Below, in pieces: positions 21,237 to 44,216 of a stretch of DNA of 46,060 nucleotides. The notes beneath the pieces were generated by a model that was given only the letters and a program-made list of their open reading frames with translations, was not told the origin of the DNA and did no database searches. The stretch's first letter is position 1. The number at the start of each line of letters is the position of its first letter. The stretch lies in sequence record ON185589.1, one strand, 5' to 3'. The translations under genes were made by a program, and so were the position numbers. The stretch is from Escherichia phage EC147.

Positions 21237-21281
21237 ACTATACACGATCTTACAGCAGGCGTTTAGCAAAAAGTGCTATTC
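21237..21281 (-). promoter_or_regulatory. conserved 21-bp element + N18 + TATAGT (cor promoter)
   Basis: minus-strand reading ATAGCACTTTTTGCTAAAC + 18 nt + TATAGT, about 30 nt upstream of the cor ATG. Confidence 0.55.
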
Positions 21282-21339
21282 TGTTCTTTTTGCTCTCATG
21301 TGTTCTCAAATCTGCGGAGGCGTAAATTTAGAGCAAAAA

Positions 21340-21520
21340 GTAAACAACAATAGAGAGCAATATATACAGATAAATATATATAAATACATATAAATCAATA
21401 AGTTAGTGGTATATGTATTTATATCTGTTCTTTATTGTTATCTATGTTTTGTGTGATTTTGCGTGTCTGGTGATTTTTCTGTGATTATGCATGTGTCAGT
21501 GGTTATGTGTGTATATATCT
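21340..21520. repeat. AT-rich region with ATAAAT/ATATATA tracts and GTGATT-type direct repeats
   Basis: about 500 bp non-coding between cor and exonuclease; GTGATTTT-like repeats near 21453, 21470, 21481, 21499; TGTTATC at 21436. Confidence 0.5.
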
Positions 21521-21647
21521 ATATCCTGCGCAAATGGAGGAACAAGAGAACAAAAAGACAACTCGGATATTTATCAATAACTTACATGTAAGTTTTGTTA
21601 TCCAGGTTGGTGAGAACGTTGTTAGAACATAAAAAACAAAATAGCTA

Positions 21648-21675
21648 TTGACTAAACGCATCAAATAGCTACAAT
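21648..21675 (+). promoter_or_regulatory. sigma70-like promoter for the recombination operon
   Basis: TTGACT (21648-53), 16-nt spacer, TACAAT (21670-75), about 30 nt upstream of ATG 21705. Confidence 0.5.
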
Positions 21676-21704
21676 GCAGGCATACCAACAAACGAGGGCA
21701 AATC

Positions 21705-22766
21705 ATGAATAAGTTTATGGCGTACACCAGCGAAGAAATGAGCAACGAGCTTTATCACGATCCAGAAGCGTGGACGGCTGATTATGTTAGCGGTTCAAGC
21801 CTGGCGGAGATTTACAGCACATGCCCGGCAGCGTGGAAGTTCAAGCCGCGTGACGACAAGAGCAAGGCGCTAGTTTTTGGTACGCAGTCGCATACCAACT
21901 TTGAAAGCAAGGAGCTTTTCGAAAAAACCTATCGCCGTGCGCCAGCGCCAGAAGACTTTAAGGATCTGATAACCAGCCAAACGGCGCTTGCTGCAAAGCT
22001 GAAATCATTTGGCCTGAAAGGTACAACCGGAAAGACTTACCCCGAACTTATAAAAATGATGGTCGACTGCGGAGAAGACCTTAACGTCATGTGGTTAATC
22101 GACATGATCGCAGAAAGTCAGGCCAGGGCCGATGGGGTTCAGTTAATCGAAGCTAAAGATTACGATTCGTGCGTTGCAATGCGCCAGGTTCTGGAATCAA
22201 TACCGGAACATAACGCATGTATGAATAGCAAGACAGCACAACGTGAATTATCGTTGTTCGGTGAAATCAACGGCGTAAAAGTCAAAGTGCGATGCGATCA
22301 CGTTGACGTAACAAAGAACGTCACCGCAACGCTGATTGATGGTTACGATGAAAAAGGTCAACCGATTTGCCGCGATATTATTTATCCAGAGGCGATTGTG
22401 ATTACTGACTACAAAACAACAATGAGCGCTAATCCGGTTGAGTTTATGCGCCTGGCTTACAATCACGGCTATTATCTGAAAATGGCGTTGCAATGTGATT
22501 TATTCAGGAAAGCGTATCCAGAAGAAAAGCGACCTATAGTTGTGCGCCTGTTAGCGCAAGAGAAGAAAGAGCCTTACTTGCCGTTAGCTTTCCGCATGAA
22601 CAGCGAGCAATTGAAGATCGGGCGCATTCAGTACATGAGCGTAATTAACCAGTTTGCCATGTGCCAGCAACATGACGTTTGGCCTTCGTATTCAAACGGC
22701 GAGCCGGAGGTTTGCCTTGATACTCCTGATTGGGTGCGACGCCAGTTTAAGCAATATCTTATTTAA
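21705..22766 (+). CDS. PD-(D/E)xK family exonuclease (RecE-like)
   Basis: 353 aa; motif VRCDHVDV..ITDYKT fits a D..(D/E)xK nuclease core; first gene of the exonuclease-Erf-SSB cluster. Confidence 0.55.
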   Translation: MNKFMAYTSEEMSNELYHDPEAWTADYVSGSSLAEIYSTCPAAWKFKPRDDKSKALVFGTQSHTNFESKELFEKTYRRAPAPEDFKDLITSQTALAAKLKSFGLKGTTGKTYPELIKMMVDCGEDLNVMWLIDMIAESQARADGVQLIEAKDYDSCVAMRQVLESIPEHNACMNSKTAQRELSLFGEINGVKVKVRCDHVDVTKNVTATLIDGYDEKGQPICRDIIYPEAIVITDYKTTMSANPVEFMRLAYNHGYYLKMALQCDLFRKAYPEEKRPIVVRLLAQEKKEPYLPLAFRMNSEQLKIGRIQYMSVINQFAMCQQHDVWPSYSNGEPEVCLDTPDWVRRQFKQYLI

Positions 22767-22794
22767 ACAGCACAAATAGCTAAACAAATGAAAA

Positions 22795-22818
22795 ATGCGG
22801 TGTTATAATTCACCGCAT
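22795..22818 (+). other. stem-loop with TTATAATT loop
   Basis: ATGCGGTG-TTATAATT-CACCGCAT, 8-bp stem, no T-run; possible RNA processing/stability element or -10-containing site. Confidence 0.35.
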
Positions 22819-22847
22819 AAGTTAACAATAAGCGTAAGGAAATAAAC

Positions 22848-23135
22848 ATGGAAAACAAACAAGTGTCAAAGGTAGCAGTTCATATCAACAATTTTGCAAC
22901 TGGCATGGCTATGTTGCTTCGTGACTTTGTAGAGCCACTTGATCCAACAGCAGGCGAAGAAGAAATGGAGTACATCAGAAAAGTAATAGATGCAGTCGAT
23001 AACGTCGTGCTCATTGCGACAATGAGTGAAGACAACGAGGAAGCAATCAAGGCGGTAAAAGAAAGTTCTGATCGCATGATGGAAAATCTTATTAAATTAC
23101 ACACTAAAGAAGAAACAAAACACCAACAGCAATAA
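22848..23135 (+). CDS. hypothetical acidic protein
   Basis: 95 aa, RBS AAGGA; about 19 acidic vs 11 basic residues; between exonuclease and Erf. Confidence 0.5.
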   Translation: MENKQVSKVAVHINNFATGMAMLLRDFVEPLDPTAGEEEMEYIRKVIDAVDNVVLIATMSEDNEEAIKAVKESSDRMMENLIKLHTKEETKHQQQ

Positions 23136-23171
23136 GGCGGCGAAAGCCGCCATGAGTTACGGGAATTAATC

Positions 23172-23828
23172 ATGAAACTATCAGAGCAATTCGACAAGGT
23201 TTTACCAGCACTGCACAAGGCGCGCAGTTTGTTTGTAAAGGTTAAGAAGGATAAACAAAATACACACTTAAAAAACCGTTACGCTACACTTGATGCCGTT
23301 CTTGATGCAATCACTCCAGCATTGAATGATAACGAGCTAATGTTGATGCAGGATATGATTGAAAGCGAGCAACCCAACCGCATCAAAGTTGAAACAACAG
23401 TTCTGCATGTTTCCGGTCAGTGGGTGAAATTCTACGCTGAATTACCAATAGTTAAAAACGATCCTCAAGGTGTAGGATCTGCATTCACATACGCGCGTCG
23501 TTATGCAGCCGCCGCAGCATTTGGCTTAAGCCAGGCAGACGATGACGCACAGATTGCCGTTAAATCTGCAAACGACTGGAAACGTGACATTGAGAAATGC
23601 GAAAGCGTAAACGAATTACAAGAAGTGCTTAAATCAGCATGGAAGGCAAGCGATCCGGCAAGCAAACAGGTAATTAAAGAGCATTACGAAAAACGCAAGG
23701 CAGAGCTTGAGATAGGCAAAGCACGAGGATTTAATCCAGCGCAACCAAAGCAAAATCTTGCCTCGCCAGAAGTTGACACAAAAAACGACGAGCAAGTAAA
23801 ATCACAAAGTATCACTGATTTTGAATAA
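23172..23828 (+). CDS. erf: Erf-family single-strand annealing protein
   Basis: 218 aa; motif [25 protein letters not shown] matches the Erf core as remembered from P22 Erf (GATSSYARKY..FGIDDAKDAD). Confidence 0.8.
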
Positions 23829-23835
23829 TTGACAT

Positions 23836-23858
23836 GGGGCGCTTGCGCCCCTTTCTTA
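23836..23858 (+). terminator. terminator-like hairpin
   Basis: GGGGCGC-TT-GCGCCCC followed by TTTCTT. Confidence 0.5.
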
Positions 23859-23872
23859 CAGGAGAATAAATA

Positions 23873-24325
23873 ATGCATATTATTACTGGTGAGATCCGAA
23901 AAGAGCCGCGAGTAAAGCAAATGCCTAACGGCAGCACACTTTATGTGGTTGAACTTTCAGAGCGATACAAAGATAAAGATGGAAACTGGCAATATACAAA
24001 CTACAGTTTCTTTTTTAATGCTAAAACAGAAGGTCTTAAGGGTTGGTATGATGAGGCATTCCAGGTTGGCAAGGTTATTTCTGTATCTTGCGACACGCTG
24101 CGCATTGAAACGCGCGAATATAACGGAAAGATGTATTCAAGTTTAATTCCTGGTGGATTTGCAAACCTGCTATTTAGCCAGCGCGGTGAAAGCCAGCAAC
24201 AATATCAGCAGCGCACGCAAGGAGGATGGGGGCAGCCACAACAACAGAATCAACCGCAACAACCGCAACAGCCAAGACAAAGCAATCAACCTCCTATGGA
24301 CTTTGACGACGACATTCCTTTCTGA
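23873..24325 (+). CDS. ssb: single-stranded DNA-binding protein
   Basis: 150 aa; OB-fold N-terminus, Gln/Pro-rich linker, canonical acidic tail DFDDDIPF. Confidence 0.95.
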   Translation: MHIITGEIRKEPRVKQMPNGSTLYVVELSERYKDKDGNWQYTNYSFFFNAKTEGLKGWYDEAFQVGKVISVSCDTLRIETREYNGKMYSSLIPGGFANLLFSQRGESQQQYQQRTQGGWGQPQQQNQPQQPQQPRQSNQPPMDFDDDIPF

Positions 24326-24332: not shown

Positions 24333-24355
24333 AGGGGCATTACGCCCCTTTTTCA
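24333..24355. terminator. bidirectional terminator between ssb and minus-strand module
   Basis: AGGGGC-ATTAC-GCCCCT with flanking T/A runs. Confidence 0.6.
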
Positions 24356-24597
24356 CTTTCAGCCATCCCAAGCACGGCAATAACCTTAACAGCAATTCGC
24401 TTTGCAAGTTCAGTTTGATGAGCATTAAGTTTTCCAGTGGTCATTATTGACAACATTCCGCTCATACTACCTAGACCGTTAAAATCTGACATTGCAGATT
24501 TCATTATTGATATTGGTGAATGACCATCATCAGATATTGTGTGCGCTCTCTCTGACAGGTCTTTAACTACCTGATCAATTCCTTCACTTTTCGTCAT
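24340..24597 (-). CDS. hypothetical protein
   Basis: 85 aa, RBS AAGGA; Ser/Met/Gly-rich; last gene of the minus-strand module. Confidence 0.45.
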   Translation of the reverse strand: MTKSEGIDQVVKDLSERAHTISDDGHSPISIMKSAMSDFNGLGSMSGMLSIMTTGKLNAHQTELAKRIAVKVIAVLGMAESEKGA

Positions 24598-25075
24598 TTG
24601 CTTTTCCTTCAGGCGTTGATTTCTGTTCTGGCATTACAGGCCACGGGCTAATTGATTCCCTTTCTGCTACTGGCTTTTCAGGTTCAATTCCTAAAAACTT
24701 TCCTACAAACTCACCAACAAAATTTGAACTATCGCTTACATAAACGTGCATCCTGTCGAGATCTGCAACCGTAACGCTATTTGGTGCGATCATAATTCGC
24801 TGTTGGTGAAAACCGATATACATCACATTAGCAGGACGCTCAAGAGTTCCCATATTTGGCGCAATTACGCCCATTATCCAACAATAATGAATGTTGCCAT
24901 CAAGCGGCTCACATCCAGCGTTAAGCCAGTTTACTTTCTGGTGAGGAAACGCCATTGATGAATCAGTAGCATCACGCCGTAACGACCATTTAACGCCGCC
25001 AATCTCAATGATTTGTTTCGGCCTCATCCCGTTGAATTGAGTCACGCCAGCGCCATTTTGATTAATGTTTTGCAT
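24584..25075 (-). CDS. hypothetical protein
   Basis: 163 aa; RBS AAAGG; overlaps downstream ORF by 14 nt. Confidence 0.5.
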   Translation of the reverse strand: MQNINQNGAGVTQFNGMRPKQIIEIGGVKWSLRRDATDSSMAFPHQKVNWLNAGCEPLDGNIHYCWIMGVIAPNMGTLERPANVMYIGFHQQRIMIAPNSVTVADLDRMHVYVSDSSNFVGEFVGKFLGIEPEKPVAERESISPWPVMPEQKSTPEGKANDEK

Positions 25076-25089
25076 ATCGGTTAACCTTT

Positions 25090-25413
25090 TTACATTGATT
25101 TCATTTTACGCAATGCGCAGATACAAGCGGCAGCAAGATCGGTTAATTCTTTCTCAATGCCATGATGCGAGCCGTCTGCCTTTTCGGTCATTAGCTCTTT
25201 GTATTCCATTTCTACAATCGACATTAAGCCGCCTGGCTTGTCAATGTGCGCGTCCCAGGTTTTAGGATAGTGCTTAGTTCTTTCAATAACACTTCCCATA
25301 ACTGAATCATGTTCATGATCTCGATCATAATCTCCATCATGATCCTTTCCTCCAATTACTACTCGCGGCAAATGCACGCGCGGTAAATGATAGCCAGCGA
25401 CACGAATTTTCAT
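25090..25413 (-). CDS. hypothetical His/Asp-rich protein
   Basis: 107 aa; RBS AAGGGG; stretch HDGDYDRDHEHD suggests metal binding. Confidence 0.5.
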   Translation of the reverse strand: MKIRVAGYHLPRVHLPRVVIGGKDHDGDYDRDHEHDSVMGSVIERTKHYPKTWDAHIDKPGGLMSIVEMEYKELMTEKADGSHHGIEKELTDLAAACICALRKMKSM

Positions 25414-25429
25414 GAGTATATCCCCTTAT

Positions 25430-25451
25430 AAAAAAGCGCCCCGAAAGGCGC
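25430..25451 (-). terminator. minus-strand terminator after the Gly-rich protein gene
   Basis: minus-strand hairpin AGCGCC-TTTCGG-GGCGCT followed by a U-run. Confidence 0.55.
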
Positions 25452-25459
25452 TTGATTTA

Positions 25460-26155: not shown

Positions 26156-26291
26156 AGTAAATTCCTCTTTGACGTTAAAAAAATTAAAAAAAGTTTGCAA
26201 CATTTATGTTACGACAAAGAGTATGCGCCCAATTACCAGGAATAGATATAAAATGTTTGTAAGCGATATGTCAGCAAATGGCATAAAGACG

Positions 26292-26317: not shown

Positions 26318-26333
26318 TTGTGATTATTTTTTG

Positions 26334-27887: not shown

Positions 27888-27942
27888 ATGCACCTCAAAC
27901 AAAAAAGCCTGACAGATGATAACATCATGCCAGGCATTGTTT

Positions 27943-28416
27943 TTAGCAATTAGTGCTTTCAGGTTTATACAGGAATCCGCCAGGTTCATAATCTGACATT
28001 CTTACCACTCGCAACATTTCACGCTTATCACATCTCTTTGTGAGCGGTTTTCCATTGGAATCAAATCGCAGATCTGGACGGCAGAATGAAGCGCGATAGC
28101 CTTGACAGTCATACTTTTTGTAATCGTTATGCACCTTTTGAGCACCAGCGGCTGAAATCATACCACGAACGCGCCACTGATTTACAGTTTGCTGGCTAAC
28201 GTTAAGACGTTTTGCCATTGCTGACACACTTCCGTAATACTCAATAAGGATTTCAAGTCGCGCTTTTAGTCCGGCTCGCACTTCATCTTTTAAAACATAG
28301 TATCCTGTAGGGCGCTTGCGCTTCTTCTTATCCTTGCCTCGTCTTGTTCCGTTATTGCCATTAATTGTGCGCTTGTCAATCTTGCCTGTTGATGCTGCAA
28401 TTCGTTGCTCTTTCAT
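27943..28416 (-). CDS. putative HTH DNA-binding regulator
   Basis: 157 aa; basic N-terminus (KDKKKRKRP) and helix-turn-helix-like VSAMAKRLNVSQQTVNQWRVRG; diverges from the helicase promoter. Confidence 0.55.
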   Translation of the reverse strand: MKEQRIAASTGKIDKRTINGNNGTRRGKDKKKRKRPTGYYVLKDEVRAGLKARLEILIEYYGSVSAMAKRLNVSQQTVNQWRVRGMISAAGAQKVHNDYKKYDCQGYRASFCRPDLRFDSNGKPLTKRCDKREMLRVVRMSDYEPGGFLYKPESTNC

Positions 28417-28428: not shown

Positions 28429-28472
28429 AATAGCATTTTTTGTTAAACGATGATTTAATGATTGTGTATTAT
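28429..28472 (+). promoter_or_regulatory. conserved element + N18 + TATTAT (helicase promoter)
   Basis: AATAGCATTTTTTGTTAAAC (28429-48), 18 nt, TATTAT (28467-72). Confidence 0.55.
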
Positions 28473-28476
28473 ACAC
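28464..28476. promoter_or_regulatory. perfect 13-bp palindrome overlapping both divergent -10 elements (candidate operator)
   Basis: GTGTAT-T-ATACAC; overlaps TATTAT of the plus promoter and TATAAT of the minus promoter. Confidence 0.5.
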
Positions 28477-28495
28477 GCCAAATGGCATTACTCAA
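28468..28495 (-). promoter_or_regulatory. sigma70-like promoter for the HTH regulator gene
   Basis: minus-strand TTGAGT, 16-nt spacer, TATAAT. Confidence 0.45.
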
Positions 28496-30551: not shown

Positions 30552-30957
30552 TAAAGGCGATTATCTGGAGTTTTACGAAAGAGATCCGACAGATACGCTA
30601 AAAGAGGAATCGCACCAGATCGGGGCGTTTCAATGGTTGACTTATGCATACCCTGAATTGCTGGCATGGCATACGAAAAACGAGGGCGACAAGGGGATCG
30701 CTACAGCAATGATGGATCAGCAAGCTGGGCTTGTTAAGGGCGTAAGTGATTTTATCATCCTGATTGGATTAAAAGGCCGTTACCCGTTCGCGGCAATTGA
30801 GATGAAGCGCGTCAATAAGTCCGGCAATGGTAAGGCTTCACCAGTCAGCAAAGAGCAAAAAGCCTTCTTGCGACGTGTGCGTGAGCTTGGCGGATTCGCC
30901 GCCGTAACATACGGATATAAGCAATTCATGATCGCTGTAGAATACATGATGAAATAG
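30538..30957 (+). CDS. VRR-NUC domain nuclease
   Basis: 139 aa; PD-(D/E)xK-type core (VSDFIIL..AIEMKR) typical of VRR-NUC; overlaps helicase 3' end. Confidence 0.65.
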   Translation: MAMTDKGDYLEFYERDPTDTLKEESHQIGAFQWLTYAYPELLAWHTKNEGDKGIATAMMDQQAGLVKGVSDFIILIGLKGRYPFAAIEMKRVNKSGNGKASPVSKEQKAFLRRVRELGGFAAVTYGYKQFMIAVEYMMK

Positions 30958-30997
30958 CACTTTTTGTTAAAACAGGCGCGAAGGATTGCGCCATAAT
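30953..30997 (+). promoter_or_regulatory. conserved element + N18 + CATAAT (dam promoter)
   Basis: AATAGCACTTTTTGTTAAAAC (30953-73) overlapping the VRR-NUC stop TAG; CATAAT at 30992-97. Confidence 0.55.
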
Positions 30998-31737: not shown

Positions 31738-31995
31738 ATGCAAAAAGAAAGAAGCATTTATTTAAATGAAACTGGAAAGTGGTTGTTATTTCGCGCTATG
31801 GTATGCGATGCACTTGATAAAAACCCTAACGTGAAAAAGATGATTGATTGCGATCCGTGGGAATTTTCAAGCGCATTAGATATGAGCTTTGAGGAGACAA
31901 AAAAACTACCGCTTGAAAAATGGAGCGAGCAAATCAGAAATGACATGCAAGAATTTGTCGATTCGTGGAATTTTCAGCACGGAATAATCCACTAA
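31738..31995 (+). CDS. hypothetical protein
   Basis: ATG at 31738 with GGAG 8 nt upstream; 85 aa; ORF track 31405..31995 is an upstream extension overlapping dam. Confidence 0.5.
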   Translation: MQKERSIYLNETGKWLLFRAMVCDALDKNPNVKKMIDCDPWEFSSALDMSFEETKKLPLEKWSEQIRNDMQEFVDSWNFQHGIIH

Positions 31996-32038
31996 TAGCA
32001 CTTTTTGTTAAAACGCCAGACCTTGTGTCGGGCATAAT
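31994..32038 (+). promoter_or_regulatory. conserved element + N18 + CATAAT
   Basis: AATAGCACTTTTTGTTAAAAC (31994-32014) starting inside the stop codon of the upstream gene; CATAAT 32033-38. Confidence 0.55.
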
Positions 32039-35216: not shown

Positions 35217-35261
35217 AATATACCCGATACGAGATCGGGAGTTTTAACAAAAAGTGCTATT
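35217..35261 (-). promoter_or_regulatory. conserved element + N18 + TATATT
   Basis: minus-strand AATAGCACTTTTTGTTAAAAC + 18 nt (contains GATC) + TATATT. Confidence 0.55.
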
Positions 35262-35770: not shown

Positions 35771-35772
35771 AA

Positions 35773-37356
35773 TTACCCCAGCAATGTTGGATTTACGAAA
35801 ACAACGCCATTAATCACACAAATATAATTTCTTTCTTCAAGCATCGGCAGCAGTTGCGTTTCCATACGCTTCATTACGCCAGCCTGACCAACAAACGGCT
35901 TAACTTTTCGTGCAGCCTCATATATGGCGCGAACATTCAAGATTCCCTTGTTAGCCTTACCGTGTCGAGTGATAATCTCGATTAGTTTACCCATTTCAGC
36001 ATCATCACCAGCATAGCCAGAAGCGTTGGCGGCGCTAATGTATGTTTTGCTCAACTCGCTAAACATCAGCAACGCCTCTTGAACGGTTTCAACCTCAATC
36101 TCTTTCGACTTCTGAGGGTATCCACCAGGATTAAACCAGTTGCGGATAGTGTGCAAAACTGAAGCAATCCTGATCACCTGCTTATCCATTTTGCCAAGCG
36201 CGCCGCGCAGCATTGTATGCGAATACTTTCCGCCATCGGCAAGGTGCGGTTCCATCTCCTGACGAGCCATGTTAAGAACTCGCATTGCTGATTTGCTGAT
36301 CTTAAGCTGGATGTTTGATTCACTCATGATGTTATGGATCAGCTTAAAATATTGACTTTTCAGTTCTCCATCAACAGGCTCATAAGTCGAATCACCGTTA
36401 TCATCAACAAACTTTCGACGACCTAAAAATGATTCCTCACGCACAAGCAAATAACGCTCACTTACACCGATACCGCGCGATCCTGCATCCATGATGGCAT
36501 TGATTGTTTCATCCTGAGCAATTACCGCCATACAGCCAAGAGCTTTAAAACTCATATTGTTGTCAGCGTTTGCACGAGCTATAGAAACATGACCATGATC
36601 CCATGCTTTTAGCACAAGTTCGCTGTTGGTTTTACGTTCGCTATTGGCATATGTCAGACCTAAAAGGCTGTTAATACTGGTTGCCTCGTCTGAAATCACA
36701 GCAAAGTTACCCTGGCGATTGTTGATTCTTGCAAGTCCTTCCGGCGTTGTGTCGGAGACAGGGAAAACAATGTCACACATCTTTTCCAGCTTTTCTTCAA
36801 GATCTTCTTTCTCCTGGTATAGCGATTCCATATCAGCGCCAGATCGCTCGCTTTTCATCTCTTTTGCAAGACCTGCCAACTTTGCCTGAATCTTTTTTCG
36901 TTCCTTCTTTCGCTGATCATTAATTCTTTCCACTTCAGCAACCATAGGAGCAATAGCCAGGCTGTTAACGGCAGATTTACCAGTTGAAGGAGGCTGACTT
37001 GTGACAACATAAAGAGCGGTTGGCTGATCCGTTCCGTGATACTCAACCGTGAAGCGTCCAAGCATTGCAGCAGACACGCAGCCGATGAAATGCATATAGG
37101 CCGATGATTCAGGGAATTGAACAGAGCGAGCAATGTTTCGCGCCAACTTACCAACAACATCAACATCATTGCCAAGAGAAATTACAGGGTAGCGATCGTT
37201 TCCGTTATTAACATCATTAACCTCACCCCAAAAGCTGGACGATTGACGGTATCCGTTAGCCTGAATGGACACGCGCACCGGAGACAGTCCTTGTGCATCA
37301 GCTAATTCGATAATTTGTTTTGGTGTTAGTTTATTTGTTTCAAACGAAAAATTCAT
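35773..37356 (-). CDS. putative P-loop ATPase (replication-associated)
   Basis: ATG 37356 after AAAGGAG (ORF track extends into the promoter); Walker A-like QPPSTGKS and Walker B-like VISDEA; 527 aa. Confidence 0.45.
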   Translation of the reverse strand: MNFSFETNKLTPKQIIELADAQGLSPVRVSIQANGYRQSSSFWGEVNDVNNGNDRYPVISLGNDVDVVGKLARNIARSVQFPESSAYMHFIGCVSAAMLGRFTVEYHGTDQPTALYVVTSQPPSTGKSAVNSLAIAPMVAEVERINDQRKKERKKIQAKLAGLAKEMKSERSGADMESLYQEKEDLEEKLEKMCDIVFPVSDTTPEGLARINNRQGNFAVISDEATSINSLLGLTYANSERKTNSELVLKAWDHGHVSIARANADNNMSFKALGCMAVIAQDETINAIMDAGSRGIGVSERYLLVREESFLGRRKFVDDNGDSTYEPVDGELKSQYFKLIHNIMSESNIQLKISKSAMRVLNMARQEMEPHLADGGKYSHTMLRGALGKMDKQVIRIASVLHTIRNWFNPGGYPQKSKEIEVETVQEALLMFSELSKTYISAANASGYAGDDAEMGKLIEIITRHGKANKGILNVRAIYEAARKVKPFVGQAGVMKRMETQLLPMLEERNYICVINGVVFVNPTLLG

Positions 37357-37383: not shown

Positions 37384-37428
37384 ATAATACCGCACCAATG
37401 CTACCCGCATTTAACAAAAAATGCTATT
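37384..37428 (-). promoter_or_regulatory. conserved element + N19 + TATTAT
   Basis: minus-strand ATAGCATTTTTTGTTAAAT + 19 nt + TATTAT; element overlaps stop TAG of the upstream gene. Confidence 0.55.
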
Positions 37429-38059: not shown

Positions 38060-38104
38060 ATTATGCCAGGCTTTTACACCTGGCTTTTAACAAAAAGTGC
38101 TATT
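38060..38104 (-). promoter_or_regulatory. conserved element + N18 + CATAAT
   Basis: minus-strand ATAGCACTTTTTGTTAAAAG + CCAGGTGTAAAAGCCTGG + CATAAT; element TAG is the stop codon of the methyltransferase-like gene. Confidence 0.55.
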
Positions 38105-39154: not shown

Positions 39155-39201
39155 TATTATCACCTTTATTTAAAGGGAGGCGAAAACCTCCCGTTCATTA
39201 A

Positions 39202-39429: not shown

Positions 39430-39459
39430 TATGCAATCCTCATTATATTCGGTGTGGTA

Positions 39460-39502
39460 ACTATACCAAGTTTGCGAAATATTGTTTAACAATTCGTGCT
39501 AT
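39460..39502 (-). promoter_or_regulatory. conserved element variant + N18 + TATAGT
   Basis: minus-strand ATAGCACGAATTGTTAAAC + 18 nt + TATAGT. Confidence 0.5.
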
Positions 39503-39603
39503 CAGTTGAAATAGCTATGGCGCTTTGCTCGCTTGTCGTCTCCGCCATAATGATCATTAGAAACGGCAATCATCCAGGCATTATGGAATATTATTAACTT
39601 CAT

Positions 39604-39885
39604 CTAATTAATACCCACCACGTTAAAACTTACAGCTTTTGTTGCGCCAAATACATACGCCTCAACAGCGCCGCCAAATACGCGAATTTTTCCCTGGCCG
39701 TACTGCGCATTCATATTGCGCCAAACCGTTCTATTACAACAGAACGCGTGACCAGTCTTAATAAGCGTATCCATATCTTTTCTTAGATCGCGATAGTCAA
39801 GCCAGAATGTAAAAGCGCGTTGTTTAATTCGCGCCGCCTTGATTGTTTCGATTGCGCTATTGAAATCATTCTTTTCGTATGCCAT
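39604..39885 (-). CDS. hypothetical protein
   Basis: 93 aa; start overlaps stop of upstream gene (TAATG). Confidence 0.45.
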   Translation of the reverse strand: MAYEKNDFNSAIETIKAARIKQRAFTFWLDYRDLRKDMDTLIKTGHAFCCNRTVWRNMNAQYGQGKIRVFGGAVEAYVFGATKAVSFNVVGIN

Positions 39886-40124
39886 TAGATTTTCTCCAAA
39901 TTCTCGATCTTGTTATTGCCAATTGAAGAATGAACGCAACGCTCTTGCGTCTCCTTGTTGCCATGAACATCAATATAATACCCTGGTATAACAGTAAAAA
40001 ACCAATTGCCACGCCAGAAGAAATAAAGGCCGTGCTTGCTTCCTTTCGCGCATTTATTCGCATTTTTAGGTATTGGAAGTCCGTGGACTCGCCGCAATTC
40101 TACATTCTTGTTAAAATTTGGCAT
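39885..40124 (-). CDS. hypothetical protein
   Basis: 79 aa, RBS GGAGG; Trp/Phe-rich. Confidence 0.45.
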   Translation of the reverse strand: MPNFNKNVELRRVHGLPIPKNANKCAKGSKHGLYFFWRGNWFFTVIPGYYIDVHGNKETQERCVHSSIGNNKIENLEKI

Positions 40125-40318
40125 TATACAACCTCCATAAATGTATTAAACCCGCGAAGTTTGAAAGCATCGCCATGTTTAACAACGTTCCATGTCAGGC
40201 CGGAGTGATACGCAACCATATCCTCAAGATCAATTGTGATGATAGCGCCTTTCTTAAAGATTCCTTTCTCGTGAGTGGTGTCACGCTGTACAACTTTAAC
40301 ATCAACCTGTGTTTCCAT
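40124..40318 (-). CDS. hypothetical protein (first gene of minus-strand early operon)
   Basis: 64 aa, RBS GAGGA; promoter element directly upstream. Confidence 0.5.
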   Translation of the reverse strand: METQVDVKVVQRDTTHEKGIFKKGAIITIDLEDMVAYHSGLTWNVVKHGDAFKLRGFNTFMEVV

Positions 40319-40349: not shown

Positions 40350-40394
40350 AATATACCAATCAGAGGCGCATCGGTTTTAACAAAAAGTGCTATT
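40350..40394 (-). promoter_or_regulatory. conserved element + N18 + TATATT
   Basis: minus-strand AATAGCACTTTTTGTTAAAAC + 18 nt + TATATT. Confidence 0.55.
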
Positions 40395-40430
40395 TCTCAA
40401 CTGGCGATTATTCCATCTATTCAATTAATC

Positions 40431-40928: not shown

Positions 40929-40958
40929 TTGACACGCCAGGTGGCGGTAAATGATAAT
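40929..40958 (+). promoter_or_regulatory. sigma70-like promoter for plus-strand early operon
   Basis: TTGACA (40929-34), 18-nt spacer, GATAAT (40953-58). Confidence 0.5.
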
Positions 40959-40989: not shown

Positions 40990-41460
40990 ATGAGTGAATC
41001 TGTATTTACAAATGAGCTTCGCAAGGTTGCGATTGCGCTCGCATCTGGATTGCACGAATCGATCCAGATACCTGAAAGATGGGTAAGGCAGCACCTGGAG
41101 GGCAAGAAGTCAGCCAGCAATGCTGGATCATATATCCGTCAGATTATGGGGCGCGTTCCAGAAGTGGCGGAGAAGGGGAGAGTTTCAGTTTCAAAGAAAC
41201 CTTACGGCCCTGATAGCGAATATTTCGGAGAAAATTACTTTGATGTGGCGATTGTTAGTGCGCCGAATCGCAGGGTGTACAATAAGGCCGCGCTTGAGAA
41301 GGCTGTAGCGAAAGCAAAACGCCAGGTTGCTGAGTCGATGCTTAAAGTCTCACCAAACCTAGCGAACTACTCGCCAGATGAATATGAAACACTTGCTAAG
41401 GCGATCGCAGACTTTCACGCGATCATTAAAGAAACATATCTTAACGATGAGGGGCAATAA
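40990..41460 (+). CDS. hypothetical protein
   Basis: 156 aa, RBS GAGGGGG. Confidence 0.5.
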   Translation: MSESVFTNELRKVAIALASGLHESIQIPERWVRQHLEGKKSASNAGSYIRQIMGRVPEVAEKGRVSVSKKPYGPDSEYFGENYFDVAIVSAPNRRVYNKAALEKAVAKAKRQVAESMLKVSPNLANYSPDEYETLAKAIADFHAIIKETYLNDEGQ

Positions 41461-41461
41461 A

Positions 41462-41710
41462 ATGAGCAAACTTACTCTTGATGAACTGATGGAAAAAATT
41501 GATGAAGTGGGCTTTAACAAACTGGTTGATTTCCACTTGACCGCATGTGAAATCACCGCACAGGAGTTTAGCGACATGCTATCTGATGCGAGCGAGATTT
41601 ATACAAGCCTATGCGGAAGAGAAATCAAAGTCATTGAAATTGAAATGCCTGGAGATCCGGTATTTGCAAGGCTTGTGGCTGCATTCGATGAGGAGAATGT
41701 TGGACTCTGA
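41462..41710 (+). CDS. hypothetical protein
   Basis: ATG 41462 after GAGGGG, 1 nt after upstream stop; 82 aa (internal Met of ORF 41378..41710). Confidence 0.5.
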   Translation: MSKLTLDELMEKIDEVGFNKLVDFHLTACEITAQEFSDMLSDASEIYTSLCGREIKVIEIEMPGDPVFARLVAAFDEENVGL

Positions 41711-41715
41711 GCGGA

Positions 41716-41760
41716 AATAGCACTTTTTGTTAAAACGCCAGGCGCAAAACCTGGCATAAT
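41716..41760 (+). promoter_or_regulatory. conserved element + N18 + CATAAT
   Basis: AATAGCACTTTTTGTTAAAAC + GCCAGGCGCAAAACCTGG + CATAAT. Confidence 0.55.
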
Positions 41761-41792
41761 AGCCTCATCGAAACGAGATTGAGGAAACAAAA

Positions 41793-41978
41793 ATGGCACG
41801 TCGCATCACCAAAGACCTTAAAGTCCTGAACAAAGAAAACGTAGTTAAAATCCTGGTTATCTGGGGCTACAACGAAGAAGCAGCAAAGCAGAAGGTAGAG
41901 GCAGGTTATGAACTGGCTGTAAAAGCAATGCCAAACGACGACGCCAAAGGCATTGCAAACTATGTGGCTTTCTTTTAA
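41793..41978 (+). CDS. hypothetical protein
   Basis: 61 aa, RBS GAGGAAA. Confidence 0.45.
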   Translation: MARRITKDLKVLNKENVVKILVIWGYNEEAAKQKVEAGYELAVKAMPNDDAKGIANYVAFF

Positions 41979-41993
41979 TTAGCAGGTGAATAA

Positions 41994-42179
41994 ATGAAAA
42001 CGAAATTAGTCCATAAATCAGAAATCAAGATCGGCGATACTGTGATTCACAACGGCGAGCTTAGAACGGTTGGCAAAGAGTCAATAAGCAAAGATGAATT
42101 TATGGGGATCTTGTTGTTCGGTGACTCTTATCGTCTTGGTTATAAAATGGTTGAGCTTGTGGAAGAGGTAAAATTCTAA
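41994..42179 (+). CDS. hypothetical protein
   Basis: 61 aa, RBS AGGTGA. Confidence 0.45.
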   Translation: MKTKLVHKSEIKIGDTVIHNGELRTVGKESISKDEFMGILLFGDSYRLGYKMVELVEEVKF

Positions 42180-42223
42180 ATAGCACTTTTTGTTAAAACT
42201 CAAAAACGATAACCAGGCATAAT
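42179..42223 (+). promoter_or_regulatory. conserved element + N18 + CATAAT
   Basis: AATAGCACTTTTTGTTAAAAC starting at the last base of the upstream stop; CATAAT 42218-23. Confidence 0.55.
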
Positions 42224-42278
42224 AAATCACATAGGGCGGCACGGCATCGCCCAGTTAAACCAATCAGGAGAAAGCACC

Positions 42279-42596
42279 ATGTTAAAACTTGCTGACATTA
42301 AATACCCGATCACATTCGAATCTCGCGGCGTTGGTCATTTCATGTTTACCGACGAGAAGACATGCACTAAGTTTAACGAATACGGAAGCCCAAACGCTTC
42401 AACAATGGAGATTGAACACTTCATTGAAGCGCACAATAAACACTACAACTCACTCAGAGACTACGCTTACGCAATGCCAGGATACACATGTTTTCACTAC
42501 AAGCCATATAAAGGCCAGGTGTTACCAGTGCGCTCACCGGAACGCGCAGAGATTCCGATGGTCAATATGAAAACCTGCGACTACAAAAAGCTGTGA
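42279..42596 (+). CDS. hypothetical protein (N-terminal domain paralogous to next ORF)
   Basis: 105 aa, RBS AGGAG; ADIKYPITF..AHNK resembles DNIKYPIVF..AHNK of ORF 42622; stop TGA is created inside a 16-bp tandem duplication. Confidence 0.5.
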   Translation: MLKLADIKYPITFESRGVGHFMFTDEKTCTKFNEYGSPNASTMEIEHFIEAHNKHYNSLRDYAYAMPGYTCFHYKPYKGQVLPVRSPERAEIPMVNMKTCDYKKL

Positions 42597-42610
42597 CTAC
42601 AAAAAGCTGT
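42579..42610 (+). repeat. perfect 16-bp tandem duplication (GACTACAAAAAGCTGT x2)
   Basis: copy 1 at 42579-94, copy 2 at 42595-610; spans the stop codon at 42594-96; 16 is not a multiple of 3. Confidence 0.9.
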
Positions 42611-42621
42611 GGTGCTTAAGC

Positions 42622-43176
42622 GTGGATAACATCAAGTATCCGATTGTTTTTCATTGTGGCGGTGGTTCAACAATCAGGTTCACATCGCGCGACAATGGCG
42701 TTTATAGCAATGGTCAGAAATCAGAGTTGAAAGTTGATTTCTTTGTCAACGCTCATAACAAATTCAATCCACACAATAAAGAAGATAAGGTGTACTACGT
42801 GGAAGACATTACAAAACACTTGTTTGGAGAAACACCATTCGGCGGCGGTAAGTCATATTTTGCGCAGGCGATAGATAACGCTGCGCGACGCATTGGTGAG
42901 CAGATTCACAGTCAAACAATTAAGGCGTCTGGTCTTGTTGCGAAAGACGTCGTAAGTCAGGGCGCTATTGAATACATGCCAGTTGCCGCCACGCTAAAAG
43001 GCGTCCAAATTGCGGATGGCACATGGTTTGAATTAACGGCAAAACCAAAGACTATCGAGATTCATGATGACGTTGTTATCCTCCTACTTCACTATGGCGG
43101 CGCTAAAAACCGGACTGTTGCAGGTGAGATCAGCATCAAGCGCGGGACGATGGTTAAGTGGAAGGTCAAAGTGTAA
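42622..43176 (+). CDS. hypothetical protein (GTG start; paralogous N-terminus)
   Basis: 184 aa; no in-frame ATG near the start; GTG at 42622 with GGTG 7 nt upstream; reading frame is continuous with the upstream ORF if one repeat copy is removed. Confidence 0.5.
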   Translation: MDNIKYPIVFHCGGGSTIRFTSRDNGVYSNGQKSELKVDFFVNAHNKFNPHNKEDKVYYVEDITKHLFGETPFGGGKSYFAQAIDNAARRIGEQIHSQTIKASGLVAKDVVSQGAIEYMPVAATLKGVQIADGTWFELTAKPKTIEIHDDVVILLLHYGGAKNRTVAGEISIKRGTMVKWKVKV

Positions 43177-43219
43177 ATAGCACGAATTGTTAAAACTCAA
43201 ATGTGGGGCCAGGTATAAT
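43176..43219 (+). promoter_or_regulatory. conserved element variant + N17 + TATAAT
   Basis: AATAGCACGAATTGTTAAAAC + 17 nt + TATAAT (43214-19). Confidence 0.55.
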
Positions 43220-43249
43220 GGCCCTACTTTCAACGAAGGAGATAAAACG

Positions 43250-43480
43250 ATGTACATTAACAAGAAGATGAAATGCATTTCCGTTAACTATGGTTGCTCT
43301 GGCATGTTCAAGCCTGGCGAAATCTATATGGCGCAAAAGTTGAAATCATCAACCGGATCTTTTTACGTCAGCAACAGTAAAGGACATCGCATGTTCCTGA
43401 ACGGTGGTGAAGGCAATAAGGTTATGGCACACGCTATGGTAATTGCTGAATTTGAAGAGGTGAAAGATGGAAACAAATAA
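43250..43480 (+). CDS. hypothetical protein
   Basis: ATG 43250 after AGGAG (ORF track start 43187 lies in the promoter); 76 aa. Confidence 0.5.
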   Translation: MYINKKMKCISVNYGCSGMFKPGEIYMAQKLKSSTGSFYVSNSKGHRMFLNGGEGNKVMAHAMVIAEFEEVKDGNK

Positions 43481-43688
43481 GCGCGTTAAGCACAAGTTTA
43501 TTGATAATCATCGCGATGCACTTGAGGTATATAAGGTTGGTGATCTCGTGTTTATTGATGGCACGTTTGAAGGTGGACGCAGGCCTGATTTTAGGTCGAT
43601 ACTTACCGTTGACCAAGTGCGCAAGCTGGCGGATAAGTTAAATGATCTGGCAGATGAAATCGAATACAAGCAAATCCATTTTAATTGA
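43467..43688 (+). CDS. hypothetical protein
   Basis: 73 aa, RBS GAGGTGA; overlaps upstream ORF. Confidence 0.45.
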   Translation: METNKRVKHKFIDNHRDALEVYKVGDLVFIDGTFEGGRRPDFRSILTVDQVRKLADKLNDLADEIEYKQIHFN

Positions 43689-43699
43689 TAGGTTTGATA

Positions 43700-44173
43700 A
43701 TGAAAAAATACACTTTCGAACTGTGGGGCAAGAAGTACGAATTAATGACCAGTAAGCCGATTGTTATCGTTGACCTGGACGGCACACTATCGGACGGATC
43801 GCATCGTTTGCATTTGCTGCCAACTGAAAACTTGCACCTTACGGAATCGTGGCGCGAGTTTAACAGGGCCGCCGCCGGAGATTCACCGATTAAAAGCTAT
43901 CGTAAAATGTTGATTAACGCATTCGAAAAGGCAGCGCTTGAGCGTGGTTGGAATGACTCATTTCACACAGCAAACTGTATCCGCCGTTACGGATTCAAGA
44001 ATTGCCGCTCATGGGCGCGTGAAATGGCTTCATGGTATGATCTTGATGCGCATTACCTTGATATGGATTGCGCCCTGGTTGAAATGATTGAACAGGCAGC
44101 ATTAGAGGATCGACCATTAACGCAATCTGATTTTGACGATTTTGTGCGCGATGAAATTTATTATATGAGCTAA
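43700..44173 (+). CDS. HAD-superfamily phosphatase (polynucleotide 3'-phosphatase-like)
   Basis: HAD motif I VIVDLDGTLSDG (DxDGT); ATG 43700 (ORF track 43685 is TTG); 157 aa. Confidence 0.55.
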   Translation: MKKYTFELWGKKYELMTSKPIVIVDLDGTLSDGSHRLHLLPTENLHLTESWREFNRAAAGDSPIKSYRKMLINAFEKAALERGWNDSFHTANCIRRYGFKNCRSWAREMASWYDLDAHYLDMDCALVEMIEQAALEDRPLTQSDFDDFVRDEIYYMS

Positions 44174-44216
44174 TAGCACTTTTTGTTAAAACTTCCGCGA
44201 GGGCATTTGTTAAAGT
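44172..44216 (+). promoter_or_regulatory. conserved element + N18 + TAAAGT (weaker -10)
   Basis: AATAGCACTTTTTGTTAAAAC overlapping the upstream stop TAA; TAAAGT at 44211-16. Confidence 0.45.

Follow-up and report, generated by a model that had tools for sequence, protein, structure and literature searches.

A conserved 21-bp repeat of Escherichia phage EC147 as the putative upstream half of a promoter cassette lacking a -35

The window covers the whole genome (46,060 bp) of the T1-like Escherichia phage EC147 (Drexlerviridae), in which strict and looser pattern searches together find 18 copies of a 21-bp element. With up to three mismatches allowed, the element has 13 matches against 0.01 expected by shuffling, far above chance; 12 of these were among the 13 copies listed in the initial annotation, while one, at 10559-10579(-), was previously unlisted. 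The 39484(-) copy is real, a 'GAA' variant that is picked up by the looser pattern only. All 13 listed copies are present within 1 base of the positions given for them, and five more (2543-2563(+), 6799-6819(-), 10559-10579(-), 22766-22786(+) and 27940-27960(-)) extend the count to 18. Although 88.7% of the genome is coding, all but one of the 18 elements lie essentially outside coding sequence. The stop codon of the upstream gene is overlapped or abutted in nine copies, where at least seven had been claimed. The copies, the canonical promoters and the gene of a candidate binder are as follows, the gap being the distance from element to -10:

2543..2563 (+): degenerate element AATAGCACGAATCGACAAACC between TerL and portal; TerL stop codon formed by its TAG
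6799..6819 (-): antisense 'orphan' copy, shortly before the major head protein gene (start 6865)
10559..10579 (-): antisense 'orphan' copy, flanked by the major-tail-protein terminator and the tape-measure chaperone gene (start 10592)
21260..21280 (-): Cor superinfection-exclusion cassette; gene 20978-21205; gap 17; -10 TATAGT 21237-21242; start predicted near 21230; 54 nt from element to ATG
22766..22786 (+): gp17 cassette, 'AAA' variant AACAGCACAAATAGCTAAACA; gene 22848-23135; gap 17; -10 TATAAT 22804-22809, enclosed by hairpin GCGGTG..CACCGC (22795-22818)
27940..27960 (-): primase cassette within the 3' end of the regulator gene; -10 TATCAT 27916-27921 in a hairpin loop; T6 after the hairpin, a real terminator shape; primase ATG near 27887, 52 nt after the element
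27943..28416 (-): 157-aa core Cro/cI-fold HTH protein, candidate element binder
28429..28449 (+): replicative helicase cassette, divergent from the regulator gene; gene 28506-30551; gap 17; -10 TATTAT 28467-28472; predicted start near 28479
28468..28495 (-): canonical sigma-70 promoter of the regulator gene, TTGAGT-16-TATAAT
30953..30973 (+): Dam methyltransferase cassette; gene 31032-31733; VRR-NUC stop codon formed by the element TAG; spacer hairpin GGCGC..GCGCC; -10 CATAAT 30992-30997; predicted start near 31004
31994..32014 (+): gp31 cassette; gene 32071-32250; spacer hairpin 32015-32033; -10 CATAAT 32033-32038; predicted start near 32045
35241..35261 (-): gp37 cassette; gene 34962-35180; spacer hairpin CCCGAT-ctcgt-ATCGGG (-29 to -13); -10 TATATT 35217-35222; leader CATCGAAACGAAAC
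37408..37428 (-): second DNA helicase cassette; gene 35773-37356; element TAG is the gp40 stop codon; -10 TATTAT 37384-37389 in the loop of hairpin TGCGG..CCGCA
38084..38104 (-): gp41 cassette; gene 37642-38028; Dcm stop codon formed by the element TAG; spacer hairpin GCCAGG-tgtaaaag-CCTGGC; -10 CATAAT 38060-38065
39483..39503 (-): gp44 cassette, 'GAA' variant; gene 39202-39429; gap 17; -10 TATAGT 39460-39465; predicted start near 39453
40374..40394 (-): gp47 cassette, first leftward; gene 40124-40318; -10 TATATT 40350-40355 within an 8-bp inverted repeat, CGATGCGC..GCGCATCG
40929..40958 (+): canonical sigma-70 promoter before gp51/gp52, TTGACA-18-GATAAT; upstream of the first rightward cassette
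41716..41736 (+): gp53 cassette, first rightward; gene 41793-41978; spacer hairpin GCCAGG-cgcaaaa-CCTGGC; -10 CATAAT 41755-41760; leader CATCGAAACGAG
42179..42199 (+): gp55 cassette; gene 42279-42596; -10 CATAAT 42218-42223; no hairpin; longer leader, ATG 79 nt after the element
43176..43196 (+): gp57 cassette, 'GAA' variant; gene 43250-43471; -10 TATAAT 43214-43219 in the loop of a GGGGCCAGG..(C)CTGGCCC-type hairpin (43203-43227)
44172..44192 (+): gp67 cassette; gene 44249-44461; TGn-extended -10 TAAAGT 44211-44216 in the loop of hairpin GAGGGCA..TGTCCTC

A good -10 hexamer, counted as TATAAT, CATAAT, TATTAT, TATATT, TATAGT, TAAAGT or TATCAT, follows 15 of the 18 copies, the chance of which is about 5e-24 at a background rate of 1.8%. 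The fixed distance previously given as 17-19 bp holds, with the restriction that the gap in EC147 is 17 or 18 bp and never 19. A start codon lies ahead of 15 copies (14 of the 15 with a good -10, plus the degenerate 2543 copy), at a distance of 51-61 nt and once of 79 nt.

The element is the published intergenic repeat of T1-like phages and hence not new: a 21-nt direct repeat, aaATAGCACnnnTTGnTAAAA, was described in 2024 for phage TLS and also reported in T1, Rtp and Rogue1, with its function left as an open question (PMC11447400). This publication was not known to the initial annotation. The accessible literature on T1-like phages yielded no 5'-end mapping, reporter or binding data for any of them. 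What is added here is a place for the repeat, which we infer to be the upstream half of a -35-less promoter cassette before most early genes.

The anatomy of the cassette and its conservation are established by a family comparison of 236 unique element copies from about 20 T1-like genomes. The best -10, of the sigma-70 type, lies 17-19 bp downstream of the element in 195 of the 236 copies (83%) and at offset 18 in 167. In the sequence logo, G-14 reaches 81% and T-17 67%, while C-1 (68%) and A+1 (85%) fall exactly at the expected transcript start, followed by a conserved leader (ATCGAAACGA; in the logo, TCGAAACGAA). An RBS, a start codon and an open frame are found in 197 copies, a median of 56 nt past the element. 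No -35 hexamer is present at -35 to -30 in the element copies, where the logo reads AAAACn, which bears out the earlier claim that nothing TTGACA-like occurs there, and the full TGn of an extended -10 is missing from most copies. The element itself spans -52 to -31 and is centred at about -41/-42 across the family, in agreement with the centre near -41 proposed before. Its core is a dyad, TAGCA-N5-TG(C/T)TA, centred at -42 and imperfect in that T occupies -37 in 44% of copies and the conserved flanks are asymmetric. Element, -10 and leader are kept across the relatives, and not even in Vibrio phage Vc1 or Pantoea phage AAS23 does the element vary. The earlier promoter reading is thus strongly supported by the fixed -10, G-14, C-1/A+1, the leader, the RBS/ATG and the missing -35. 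Because most copies have neither a -35 nor a full TGn extended -10, it is reasonable to suppose that an activator or an unusual RNA polymerase contact would be needed. The further idea of a displaced UP element is not supported, as the invariant positions contain G/C (AGCAC, TTG) and the location, -52 to -31, is not upstream of a -35.

Hairpins in the spacer or around the -10 form a further layer of the cassette. The region from -32 to +12 has a fold energy of -11.1 kcal/mol against -5.5 kcal/mol in shuffles (p = 5e-26), and perfect inverted repeats are commoner than in shuffles (53% of copies vs 7.5%) and take two registers, either within the spacer or bracketing the -10. Their covariation is established by orthologous promoters, in which compensatory changes leave 76.9% of cells paired against 61.7% in shuffles (none of 500 shuffles reaches 76.9%) and 36-44% in slid controls; the helix of the gp67 cassette is kept in this way in 12 relatives. 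The loops are frequently UNCG or GNRA, G.T mismatches outnumber A.C (11 vs 3), and folding is better for the forward strand than for the reverse, all of which argues for selection on the sense-strand RNA. Several of these hairpins are annotated as rho-independent terminators in the T1 RefSeq record, as is the T1 counterpart of the primase-cassette hairpin, and the covarying hairpins have the look of attenuators acting on the gene before them.

EC147 shows no enrichment of canonical -35/-10 pairs (33 found vs 39 expected). The few canonical promoters precede the regulator gene and the first two genes read rightward, a layout conserved in T1, TLS and AAS23. Equivalents of the regulator promoter can be read from the sequences of T1 (TTGAAT-17-TATAAT) and Pantoea phage AAS23 (TTAACA-17-TAGAAT), and a promoter at 35881..35909 stands beside DR11 in TLS (Supplementary Table S1), where P01 at 523..549 and then DR1 at 1521 also match the rightward layout; in T1, similarly, the first element, at 1450, comes after two genes (ST77, ST76). 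The helicase element at 28429..28449 covers, on the other strand, positions of about +12 to +32 relative to the canonical promoter of the regulator itself, from which the gene of the candidate binder would be transcribed. This 157-aa Cro/cI-like protein (phrog_2856, with weak Pfam matches to P22_Cro and YdaS) has the sole DNA-binding fold among 41 scanned proteins, and its family occurs in 830 phage records, all T1-like. The invariant N-terminal arm DKRxxNGNNGTxRG counts for a role as binder. The recognition helix, by contrast, varies (QQTVNQW in EC147, NQTVQGW in T1, TKVVTGW in TLS-like phages, VRLTNAY in Vc1) while the element is invariant, which makes it probable that the HTH recognises something else; replication initiator or Cro-like repressor are other possible roles for the protein.

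Among the conserved copies, three have either no usable spaced -10 or no gene downstream. That at 2543..2563(+) has no -10 at 17-19 bp and is followed by a strong terminator-like hairpin (about 2575-2597) with a T-run, then by the portal RBS and ATG at 2616; it is probably a decayed cassette or a copy for protein binding only. At 6799..6819(-), a position and orientation matched in T1 (15086-) and many relatives, the hexamer in the -10 position is TTATGG/TATGGG, without T at -7, and the minus strand downstream holds no gene. The copy at 10559..10579(-), conserved in position in T1 (18850-) and relatives, has a -10 TATCAT at 10535-10540 and a predicted start near 10528 that heads into the reversed major-tail terminator and could yield a short antisense RNA. 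That such copies lack a -10 or a gene points to some role of the element not tied to driving a gene. The initial annotation had neither these antisense orphans of the late operon nor the conserved leader nor the covarying hairpins within the promoter.

The explanation that best fits this arrangement, to which about an even chance is given, is a modular promoter-terminator cassette in which the element replaces the -35 as a protein-binding site, a sigma-70 -10 is retained and the hairpins end the upstream unit. Each copy would be the upstream half of such a cassette before most early, replication and accessory genes of T1-like phages, in the order upstream stop codon, 21-bp element (-52 to -31), 18-bp spacer with usually a GC-rich hairpin, G-14 and sigma-70 -10, C-1/A+1, leader, and RBS with ATG. 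The -10 would be used by host sigma-70 RNA polymerase, recruited or stabilised by a most likely phage-encoded protein that binds the element sequence-specifically near -42, the class II activator position, as lambda cI does at PRM. In RNA reading through from the gene upstream, the hairpins would work as terminators, attenuators or 3' stabilisers, so that each cassette would close one transcription unit and open the next. A binding site is favoured by the dyad core and by the Cro/cI-like fold of the one candidate. Counted against this reading are the imperfection of the dyad with its asymmetric flanks, the variable recognition helix, the three copies without a usable -10 or a gene, and the deep conservation across hosts, which would also fit direct recognition by a conserved host component.

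Such a component could be host RNA polymerase itself, reading the element without a phage factor, with TTG(C/T)TA contacting sigma region 4 and the T/A tracts the alpha C-terminal domain, so that the copies would be constitutive strong early promoters of unusual geometry. Invariance across hosts from Vibrio to Pantoea and E. coli is expected of a highly conserved host reader, TTGnTA and the T5/A4 tracts do lie within the element, nearly all early genes use it, the first leftward one included, and no convincing phage binder was found. It is nevertheless unlikely, as TTGnTA sits 22 bp from the -10, well beyond the 16-18 bp tolerated by sigma-70, and hairpin extrusion is no remedy, since about half of the copies have no inverted repeat and those present span 14-21 bp. 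The invariant AGCAC is G/C-containing and, at -47 to -44, matches no known UP-element consensus, and the two or three canonical promoters kept at conserved places suggest two promoter classes. Just as doubtful is an operator for a Cro-like phage repressor that shuts off the early genes, with promoters running on the -10 and G-14 alone, similar to the 'stoperators' of mycobacteriophage L5, an analogy raised by the TLS authors (PMC11447400). The sole HTH protein has the fold of Cro proteins, which are repressors, the element overlaps the -35 region, the classic repressor position, one copy sits just past the start of the regulator's own promoter, and orphans without a usable -10 at late-gene junctions resemble pure binding sites or roadblocks. 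However, promoters without a -35 and mostly without TGn should be too weak for unaided expression of helicase, primase and Dam, the rigid phasing of 18 +/- 1 bp to the -10 in about 20 genomes is more typical of a polymerase-touching activator, and the mismatch between variable recognition helix and invariant element applies here also.

The apparent selection on the hairpins as sense-strand RNA, the terminators annotated in T1 and the indel bounded by two copies could also mean that the block is mainly an RNA signal (processing, termination or antitermination) or a cassette-shuffled repeat with an incidental -10. On its opposite strand the element includes UUUUAACAA, which may resemble the 3' part of the rrn boxA. 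An RNA signal or shuffled repeat is nevertheless highly improbable, as it leaves the fixed-distance sigma-70 -10 (A-11, T-7), G-14 and C-1/A+1 in 83% of copies unexplained; moreover, Rfam gave no match, the hairpins differ in sequence and loop among copies, so that no specific protein-recognition hairpin like boxB is present, and the element itself lies outside any conserved helix. Least credible is that the inverted repeats act as DNA, a supercoil-extruded hairpin exposing the non-template strand of the -10 as single-stranded DNA in a sigma-70 counterpart of the hairpin promoters of the phage N4 virion RNA polymerase. About 40 of 186 copies do have arms at about -24 to -19 and -6 to -1, with the extended -10 and -10 wholly in the loop and the 3' arm ending exactly at -1, but in about equally many the hairpin stays wholly on the upstream side of the -10, and a strong repeat is missing from nearly half. 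The tolerance of G.T and not of A.C and the UNCG/GNRA loops speak for RNA rather than DNA, and the register is more simply explained by -30 to -18 and -6 to -1 being the sole free positions between conserved blocks.

As the promoter-terminator cassette is repeated, it would also serve as a homologous recombination site that shuffles small genes. Comparison with phage damhaus shows an indel of 855 bp whose limits coincide exactly with two element copies, its exact junction in EC147 being the copy at 40374..40394.

The 21-bp element is a real repeat of the EC147 genome, present far beyond chance, and has already been published as an unexplained feature of T1-like phages. With AATAGCACTTTTTGTTAAAAC at up to 3 mismatches, 13 matches were found in the window against a shuffle-type expectation of 0.01, and a looser pattern, ATAGCANNNNTTGNTAAA, recovered every one of the 13 copies listed in the initial annotation, including the 'GAA' variant at 39483-39503(-). 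The looser pattern also adds copies at 2543+, 6799-, 10559-, 22766+ and 27940-, giving a total of 18. The -10 hexamer that had been placed 17-19 nt past every copy is present in strong form at 15 of the 18 (P ~5e-24 at a 1.8% background rate), with a gap of only 17 or 18 bp. A start codon lies past the element in 15 of the 18 copies, at 51-61 nt and in one case at 79 nt, so that element start and ATG are 72-82 nt (once 100 nt) apart in these gene-facing copies, while the other three are orphan or antisense. Coding sequence makes up 88.7% of the genome, yet seventeen elements lie essentially outside it, and nine overlap or abut the stop codon of the upstream gene, where at least seven had been noted before.

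A 21-nt intergenic repeat, DR1-DR18, has been described in phage TLS with the consensus aaATAGCACnnnTTGnTAAAA, subtypes A, T and G and a distance of ~76 nt from start codons, and was also reported in T1, Rtp and Rogue1 (PMC11447400, 2024). The TLS authors, who found only three canonical sigma-70 promoters, suggested stoperators, enhancer-binding sites or UP elements and left the function as an open question; hairpins, a conserved leader, a start site and a -10 hexamer are not connected with the repeat in their paper (PMC11447400). The EC147 element is identical to the TLS repeat in sequence, shares its central variants TTT, GAA and AAA, and is likewise intergenic, oriented with transcription and ~76 nt from repeat start to start codon in a Drexlerviridae genome. 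By consensus aaATAGCACnnnTTGnTAAAA, by these variants and by placement it therefore belongs to the T1-like 21-nt repeat; no difference was found in the element, and EC147 is one further carrier genome. In the accessible literature on Drexlerviridae, T1-like phages and Webervirus promoters or starts, only the TLS paper mentions the repeat, and no mapped transcription starts were found for the T1-like family. The interest lies not in the discovery of the element but in a promoter anatomy which, as read from sequence, goes beyond the published description and makes the question of the TLS paper directly testable.

EC147 has a complete, circularly permuted genome of 46,060 bp with 94-95% identity to the phages damhaus and pSf-1 (Drexlerviridae, Tempevirinae, Hanrivervirus), and thus belongs to the same phage family as TLS. 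Its gene layout was obtained by mapping damhaus proteins onto the window.

Gene blocks of EC147 (damhaus mapping)
1-20944 (+), late structural operon
20978-21205 (-), cor
21705-24325 (+), recombination genes
24340-28416 (-), block ending with primase and an HTH 'transcriptional regulator'
28506-34947 (+), helicase through lysis genes
34962-40318 (-), leftward early block
40990-46060 (+), rightward early block, continuing into terS at position 1

Two antisense orphan copies within the late operon, one preceding the major head gene and one following the major tail terminator, are conserved between T1 and EC147; both positions are also conserved in many relatives.

Orphan and degenerate copies
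6799-6819 (-), orphan copy just upstream of the major head gene, with a defective -10; T1 15086-
10559-10579 (-), orphan copy between the major-tail terminator and the RBS of the next gene, with a good -10; T1 18850-
2543-2563 (+), degenerate sense copy, to ~2600, overlapping the TerL stop codon at the TerL/portal junction

The good -10 of the copy at 10559-10579(-) is aimed into the reverse of the major-tail terminator, and could therefore give an antisense RNA of ~45 nt. The degenerate copy at 2543-2563(+) is followed by a strong terminator hairpin and not by a spaced -10; similar pairs of element and terminator occur in relatives.

The promoter anatomy was derived from a pattern scan of viral contigs, which gave 236 unique copies, 186 of which entered a sequence logo. 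The repeat, whose conservation in relatives had been put forward as a check, is present in ~18 T1-like genomes with 6-17 exact copies each, and matches outside these genomes are single and chance-like. Of the central variants, TTT accounts for 131 family copies, GAA for 73 and AAA for 7. The best -10 is found at offset 18 in 167/236 copies and at 17-19 in 195/236, and 197/236 are followed by an RBS and a start codon with an open frame, at a median of 56 nt past the element. In the logo the element occupies -52 to -31 relative to the predicted start, followed by T-17 (67%), G-14 (81%), the hexamer TAtaaT, C-3, C-1 (68%), A+1 (85%) and a leader, TCGAAACGAA, conserved at +2 to +11. A -35 hexamer was not found in the 186 copies, because -35 to -30 reads AAAACn; the TTG(C/T)TA within the element lies 22 bp from the -10. 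A Y-1/R+1 step exactly 7 nt past a near-consensus -10 has the look of a real sigma-70 start, and is the strongest indirect support for reading the sequence as a promoter. The initial annotation is well supported by this comparative anatomy (-10 phasing, C-1/A+1, leader, RBS and start codon) in its promoter interpretation and in the lack of a TTGACA-like -35, and the class II position near -41 that it gave to the element agrees with a span of -52 to -31 and a dyad core centred at -42.

The first 11 transcribed bases, +1 to +11 (ATCGAAACGAA), are conserved over copies and genomes, and may serve in promoter escape, in mRNA stability or in translation.

Examples of the conserved +1 to +11 sequence ATCGAAACGAA
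41767-41777 (+)
35210-35200 (-)

In the spacers (-30 to -13; 236 copies) GATC is ~3-fold enriched, with 36 copies against 12 expected, mostly at -29 to -24 and in 15% of copies only; these phages encode a Dam methylase.

Between the conserved blocks, the promoters carry hairpins. The segment from -32 to +12 folds at -11.1 kcal/mol against -5.5 for shuffles (p = 5e-26), no excess folding being seen in the flanking regions, and perfect inverted repeats scoring at least 14 are found in 53% of copies against 7.5% of shuffles. Class A hairpins lie within the spacer, with the 5' arm from -31 or -30 and the 3' arm to -13 or -12; class B hairpins have arms at ~-24 to -19 and -6 to -1, with the extended -10 and the -10 in the loop. 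These registers are exact because both slots are the sole unconstrained positions between conserved blocks. The arms differ in sequence among copies while complementarity is kept: in 13 orthologous 'TTTGnTAnAG' promoters 76.9% of cells are paired against 61.7% in shuffles, a level that 0/500 shuffles reach, slid controls give 36-44%, and double changes occur at 6/7 inner pairs. A fixed-column complementarity test gave modest z-scores (3.4-4.5), since the register varies among copies. Three features, namely the frequent UNCG or GNRA loops, an excess of internal G.T over A.C mismatches (11 to 3, p = 0.06) and a better folding of the forward than of the reverse strand (p = 1e-5), point to selection on sense-strand RNA, putatively in transcripts reading through from upstream. 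Some hairpins are, by prediction, true terminators whose U-tract extends into the -10 (AAACCCGC-ttcg-GCGGGTTTTGTATTAT). A U-tract directly after a GC-rich stem-loop is found in some copies only (27940-, and the AAACCCGC-ttcg-GCGGGTTTTGTATTAT types in relatives), most hairpins having only (C/T)ATAAT or ATCGAAAC directly 3'. In the T1 RefSeq record several of these hairpins are annotated as rho-independent terminators. Each cassette, meaning the element with its spacer, -10, start and leader, thus has the appearance of a unit's end joined directly to the beginning of the following unit. No Rfam matches were found.

Neither a -35 nor a full TGn is present in most copies, so these promoters would seem to need a positive contact of some kind, from which we infer a requirement for an activator. 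The core of the element is an imperfect dyad, TAGCA-N5-TG(C/T)TA, centred at -42, with position -37 being C in 56% and T in 42% of family copies. Among 41 proteins scanned with Pfam, a DNA-binding fold was found only in the regulator, a 157-aa Cro/cI-fold HTH protein encoded at 27943-28416, and further DNA-binding domains were not found. Its gene is core in the T1-like family (830 phage records), and, unlike ~15 other genes, has a canonical promoter, with equivalents in T1, TLS and AAS23.

Canonical promoters
28495-28468 (-), promoter of the regulator gene, TTGAGT-16-TATAAT
40929-40958 (+), promoter before gp51/gp52

These are the sole convincing canonical -35/-10 promoters near the early regions, and this layout before the HTH regulator and gp51/gp52 is conserved in T1, TLS and AAS23. 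The leader of the regulator gene crosses the element of the helicase promoter at +12 to +32, as is typical for phage regulators under autoregulation. Its recognition helix differs widely within the family, but the element stays the same as far away as Vibrio phage Vc1 and Pantoea phage AAS23, so that no co-variation of helix and element was found among Vc1, AAS23, T1 and TLS (Shigella phage vB_SsoS_008, with fragmented genes in its record, was left out). By contrast, residues 10-35, with the arm STGxxDKRxxNGNNGTRRGxDKK, are invariant family-wide, far more conserved than the helix and modelled as disordered (pLDDT ~60); they include the invariant basic N-terminal arm DKRxxNGNNGTxRG. If the regulator reads the element, it probably does not do so via the HTH helix, and it could just as well act as a repressor or in replication initiation. 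As a binder gp51, the first gene after the canonical promoter at 40929-40958, was rejected, being neither conserved across the family nor core.

Other explanations account for parts of this picture. Direct reading of the element by host polymerase suits the extreme conservation across hosts, but is hard to reconcile with the spacing of 22 bp and with invariant positions that are G/C-rich. An operator for a repressor is in keeping with the Cro fold and the orphan copies, yet the promoters would then be too weak to function without help. The phased -10 and the start site find no explanation in a role purely as RNA or in recombination. Against a DNA-hairpin promoter stand the RNA-type signatures and the many copies that have no hairpin.

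Sigma-54 promoters, UP elements and the MotA box each have a defining feature that the element lacks; they were, like the other sites below, compared by eye with consensus sequences. UP elements have an A/T-only consensus at -59 to -38, upstream of a -35. The displaced UP element of the initial annotation is not supported, as the element is not A/T-only, lies at -52 to -31 with invariant G-47, C-46, C-44 and G-38, and has no -35 downstream. A sigma-54 promoter is defined by TGGCAC-N5-TTGCW, with GG at -24, GC at -12, strict spacing and an AAA+ enhancer-binding protein. The element reads AGCAC-N3-TTG(C/T)T, 2 bp too short in spacing and with AG instead of GG; C occupies the GC position in only 54% of copies, and no AAA+ activator was found among the scanned proteins. 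Sites for sigma-32 (CCCCAT in class B arms), IHF, Fis, CRP and DnaA were rejected for wrong spacing or sequence, and TTGnTA as a -35 with a cruciform-shortened spacer was rejected for its geometry.

The proposed activator-dependent cassette is comparable to class II promoters, such as those of CRP/FNR at -41.5 and of lambda cI at OR2 activating PRM (-42), in which a site near -42 lies over a missing or poor -35. The EC147 copies have a sigma-70 -10 at a fixed distance and no -35 hexamer 16-18 bp upstream, and their dyad centre of -42 corresponds to ~-41.5 if the start is the conserved A 7 nt past the -10. A good -10, fixed helical phasing and a Cro/cI-fold protein beside a divergent promoter pair are common to EC147, class II systems and the controller C proteins of R-M systems. 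In EC147, however, the binder is only a candidate whose helix is not conserved, and the site is weakly dyad-symmetric with asymmetric, conserved flanks. T4 middle promoters (MotA box, AsiA-remodelled sigma-70) are similar in that a lytic phage without its own polymerase replaces the -35 by a phage-specific box and keeps the sigma-70 -10, often with TGn. The MotA box has the consensus (a/t)(a/t)(a/t)TGCTT(t/c)A, which TTTGCTAAA of the element resembles; this motif lies at -41 to -33, where the MotA box is centred at -30, the EC147 box is centred at ~-37 to -42 and spans 21 bp rather than 9, and no MotA/AsiA Pfam match was found in the 41 proteins. L5 stoperators, asymmetric sites of a known repressor that stop elongating polymerase, share the orientation with transcription, but the EC147 element is phased to a -10 and its phage is lytic.

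The PeSL (promoter-early stem-loop) cassettes of T4-type phages combine canonical sigma-70 promoters (-35, -10, AT-rich upstream), read by unmodified host polymerase, with a stem-loop beside the promoter, and mediate modular shuffling, with cassette copies bounding indels between close relatives (PMC2839356, PMC4122927). The EC147 cassettes are comparable as repeated intergenic composites of promoter and G...C stem-loop (often GGGG...CCCC) and as predicted attenuators of upstream transcription flanking small accessory genes. They differ from PeSLs by an invariant 21-bp element instead of a -35, which the logo lacks, by a stem-loop inside the promoter, and by occurring in a Drexlerviridae siphovirus rather than a T4-type myovirus. 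An 855-bp segment of damhaus (gp48-50), flanked by two element copies at 33915-33936 and 34791-34812, is absent in EC147, where a single element copy forms the exact junction at 40374-40395. Cassettes may thus recombine with each other, in the manner of the PeSLs of T4-type phages; other EC147/damhaus indel junctions lie at least 50 bp from an element.

T1 belongs to the original set of T phages, and phages related to it are often met in collections and as contaminants of fermenters. The question at stake is how T1 relatives run a transcription programme without a polymerase, sigma factor or known activator of their own. A tentative answer, which we consider possible though rather doubtful as a whole, is that T1-like phages, including T1, redirect host RNA polymerase by a system that has so far escaped recognition. 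The invariant 21-bp box at -42 would be read by a phage protein, which would activate ~15 -35-less promoters per genome; the reader could be the Cro-like core protein, via its invariant basic arm, or a small protein without detectable homology. Each promoter would hold the terminator of the preceding unit, and the antisense copies at late junctions would restrain late transcription early, by interference or as a roadblock. The anatomy offers base-precise predicted starts, a defined -42 box, a short list of candidates and hairpins that can be tested. An activator, should there be one, would represent a new way to capture host polymerase, with the cassette as a compact, portable promoter-terminator part; if not, sigma-70 polymerase would be using an upstream element of unprecedented geometry.

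Several genes of EC147 differ from their damhaus counterparts. The gp43 homologue (38820-39044(-)) has an in-frame stop, the polynucleotide kinase gene (43685-44173(+)) is truncated and joined to gp66 via a ~3.1 kb deletion, and of the tail-fibre gene, 720 aa in damhaus, only a fragment is present (26334-26954(-)). GenBank records MG065636-MG065687 ('Campylobacter phage A14a, A13a, A136 ...'), which give Campylobacter jejuni as the phage host, share 91-98% identity with EC147, and to judge from this identity their host labels look wrong.
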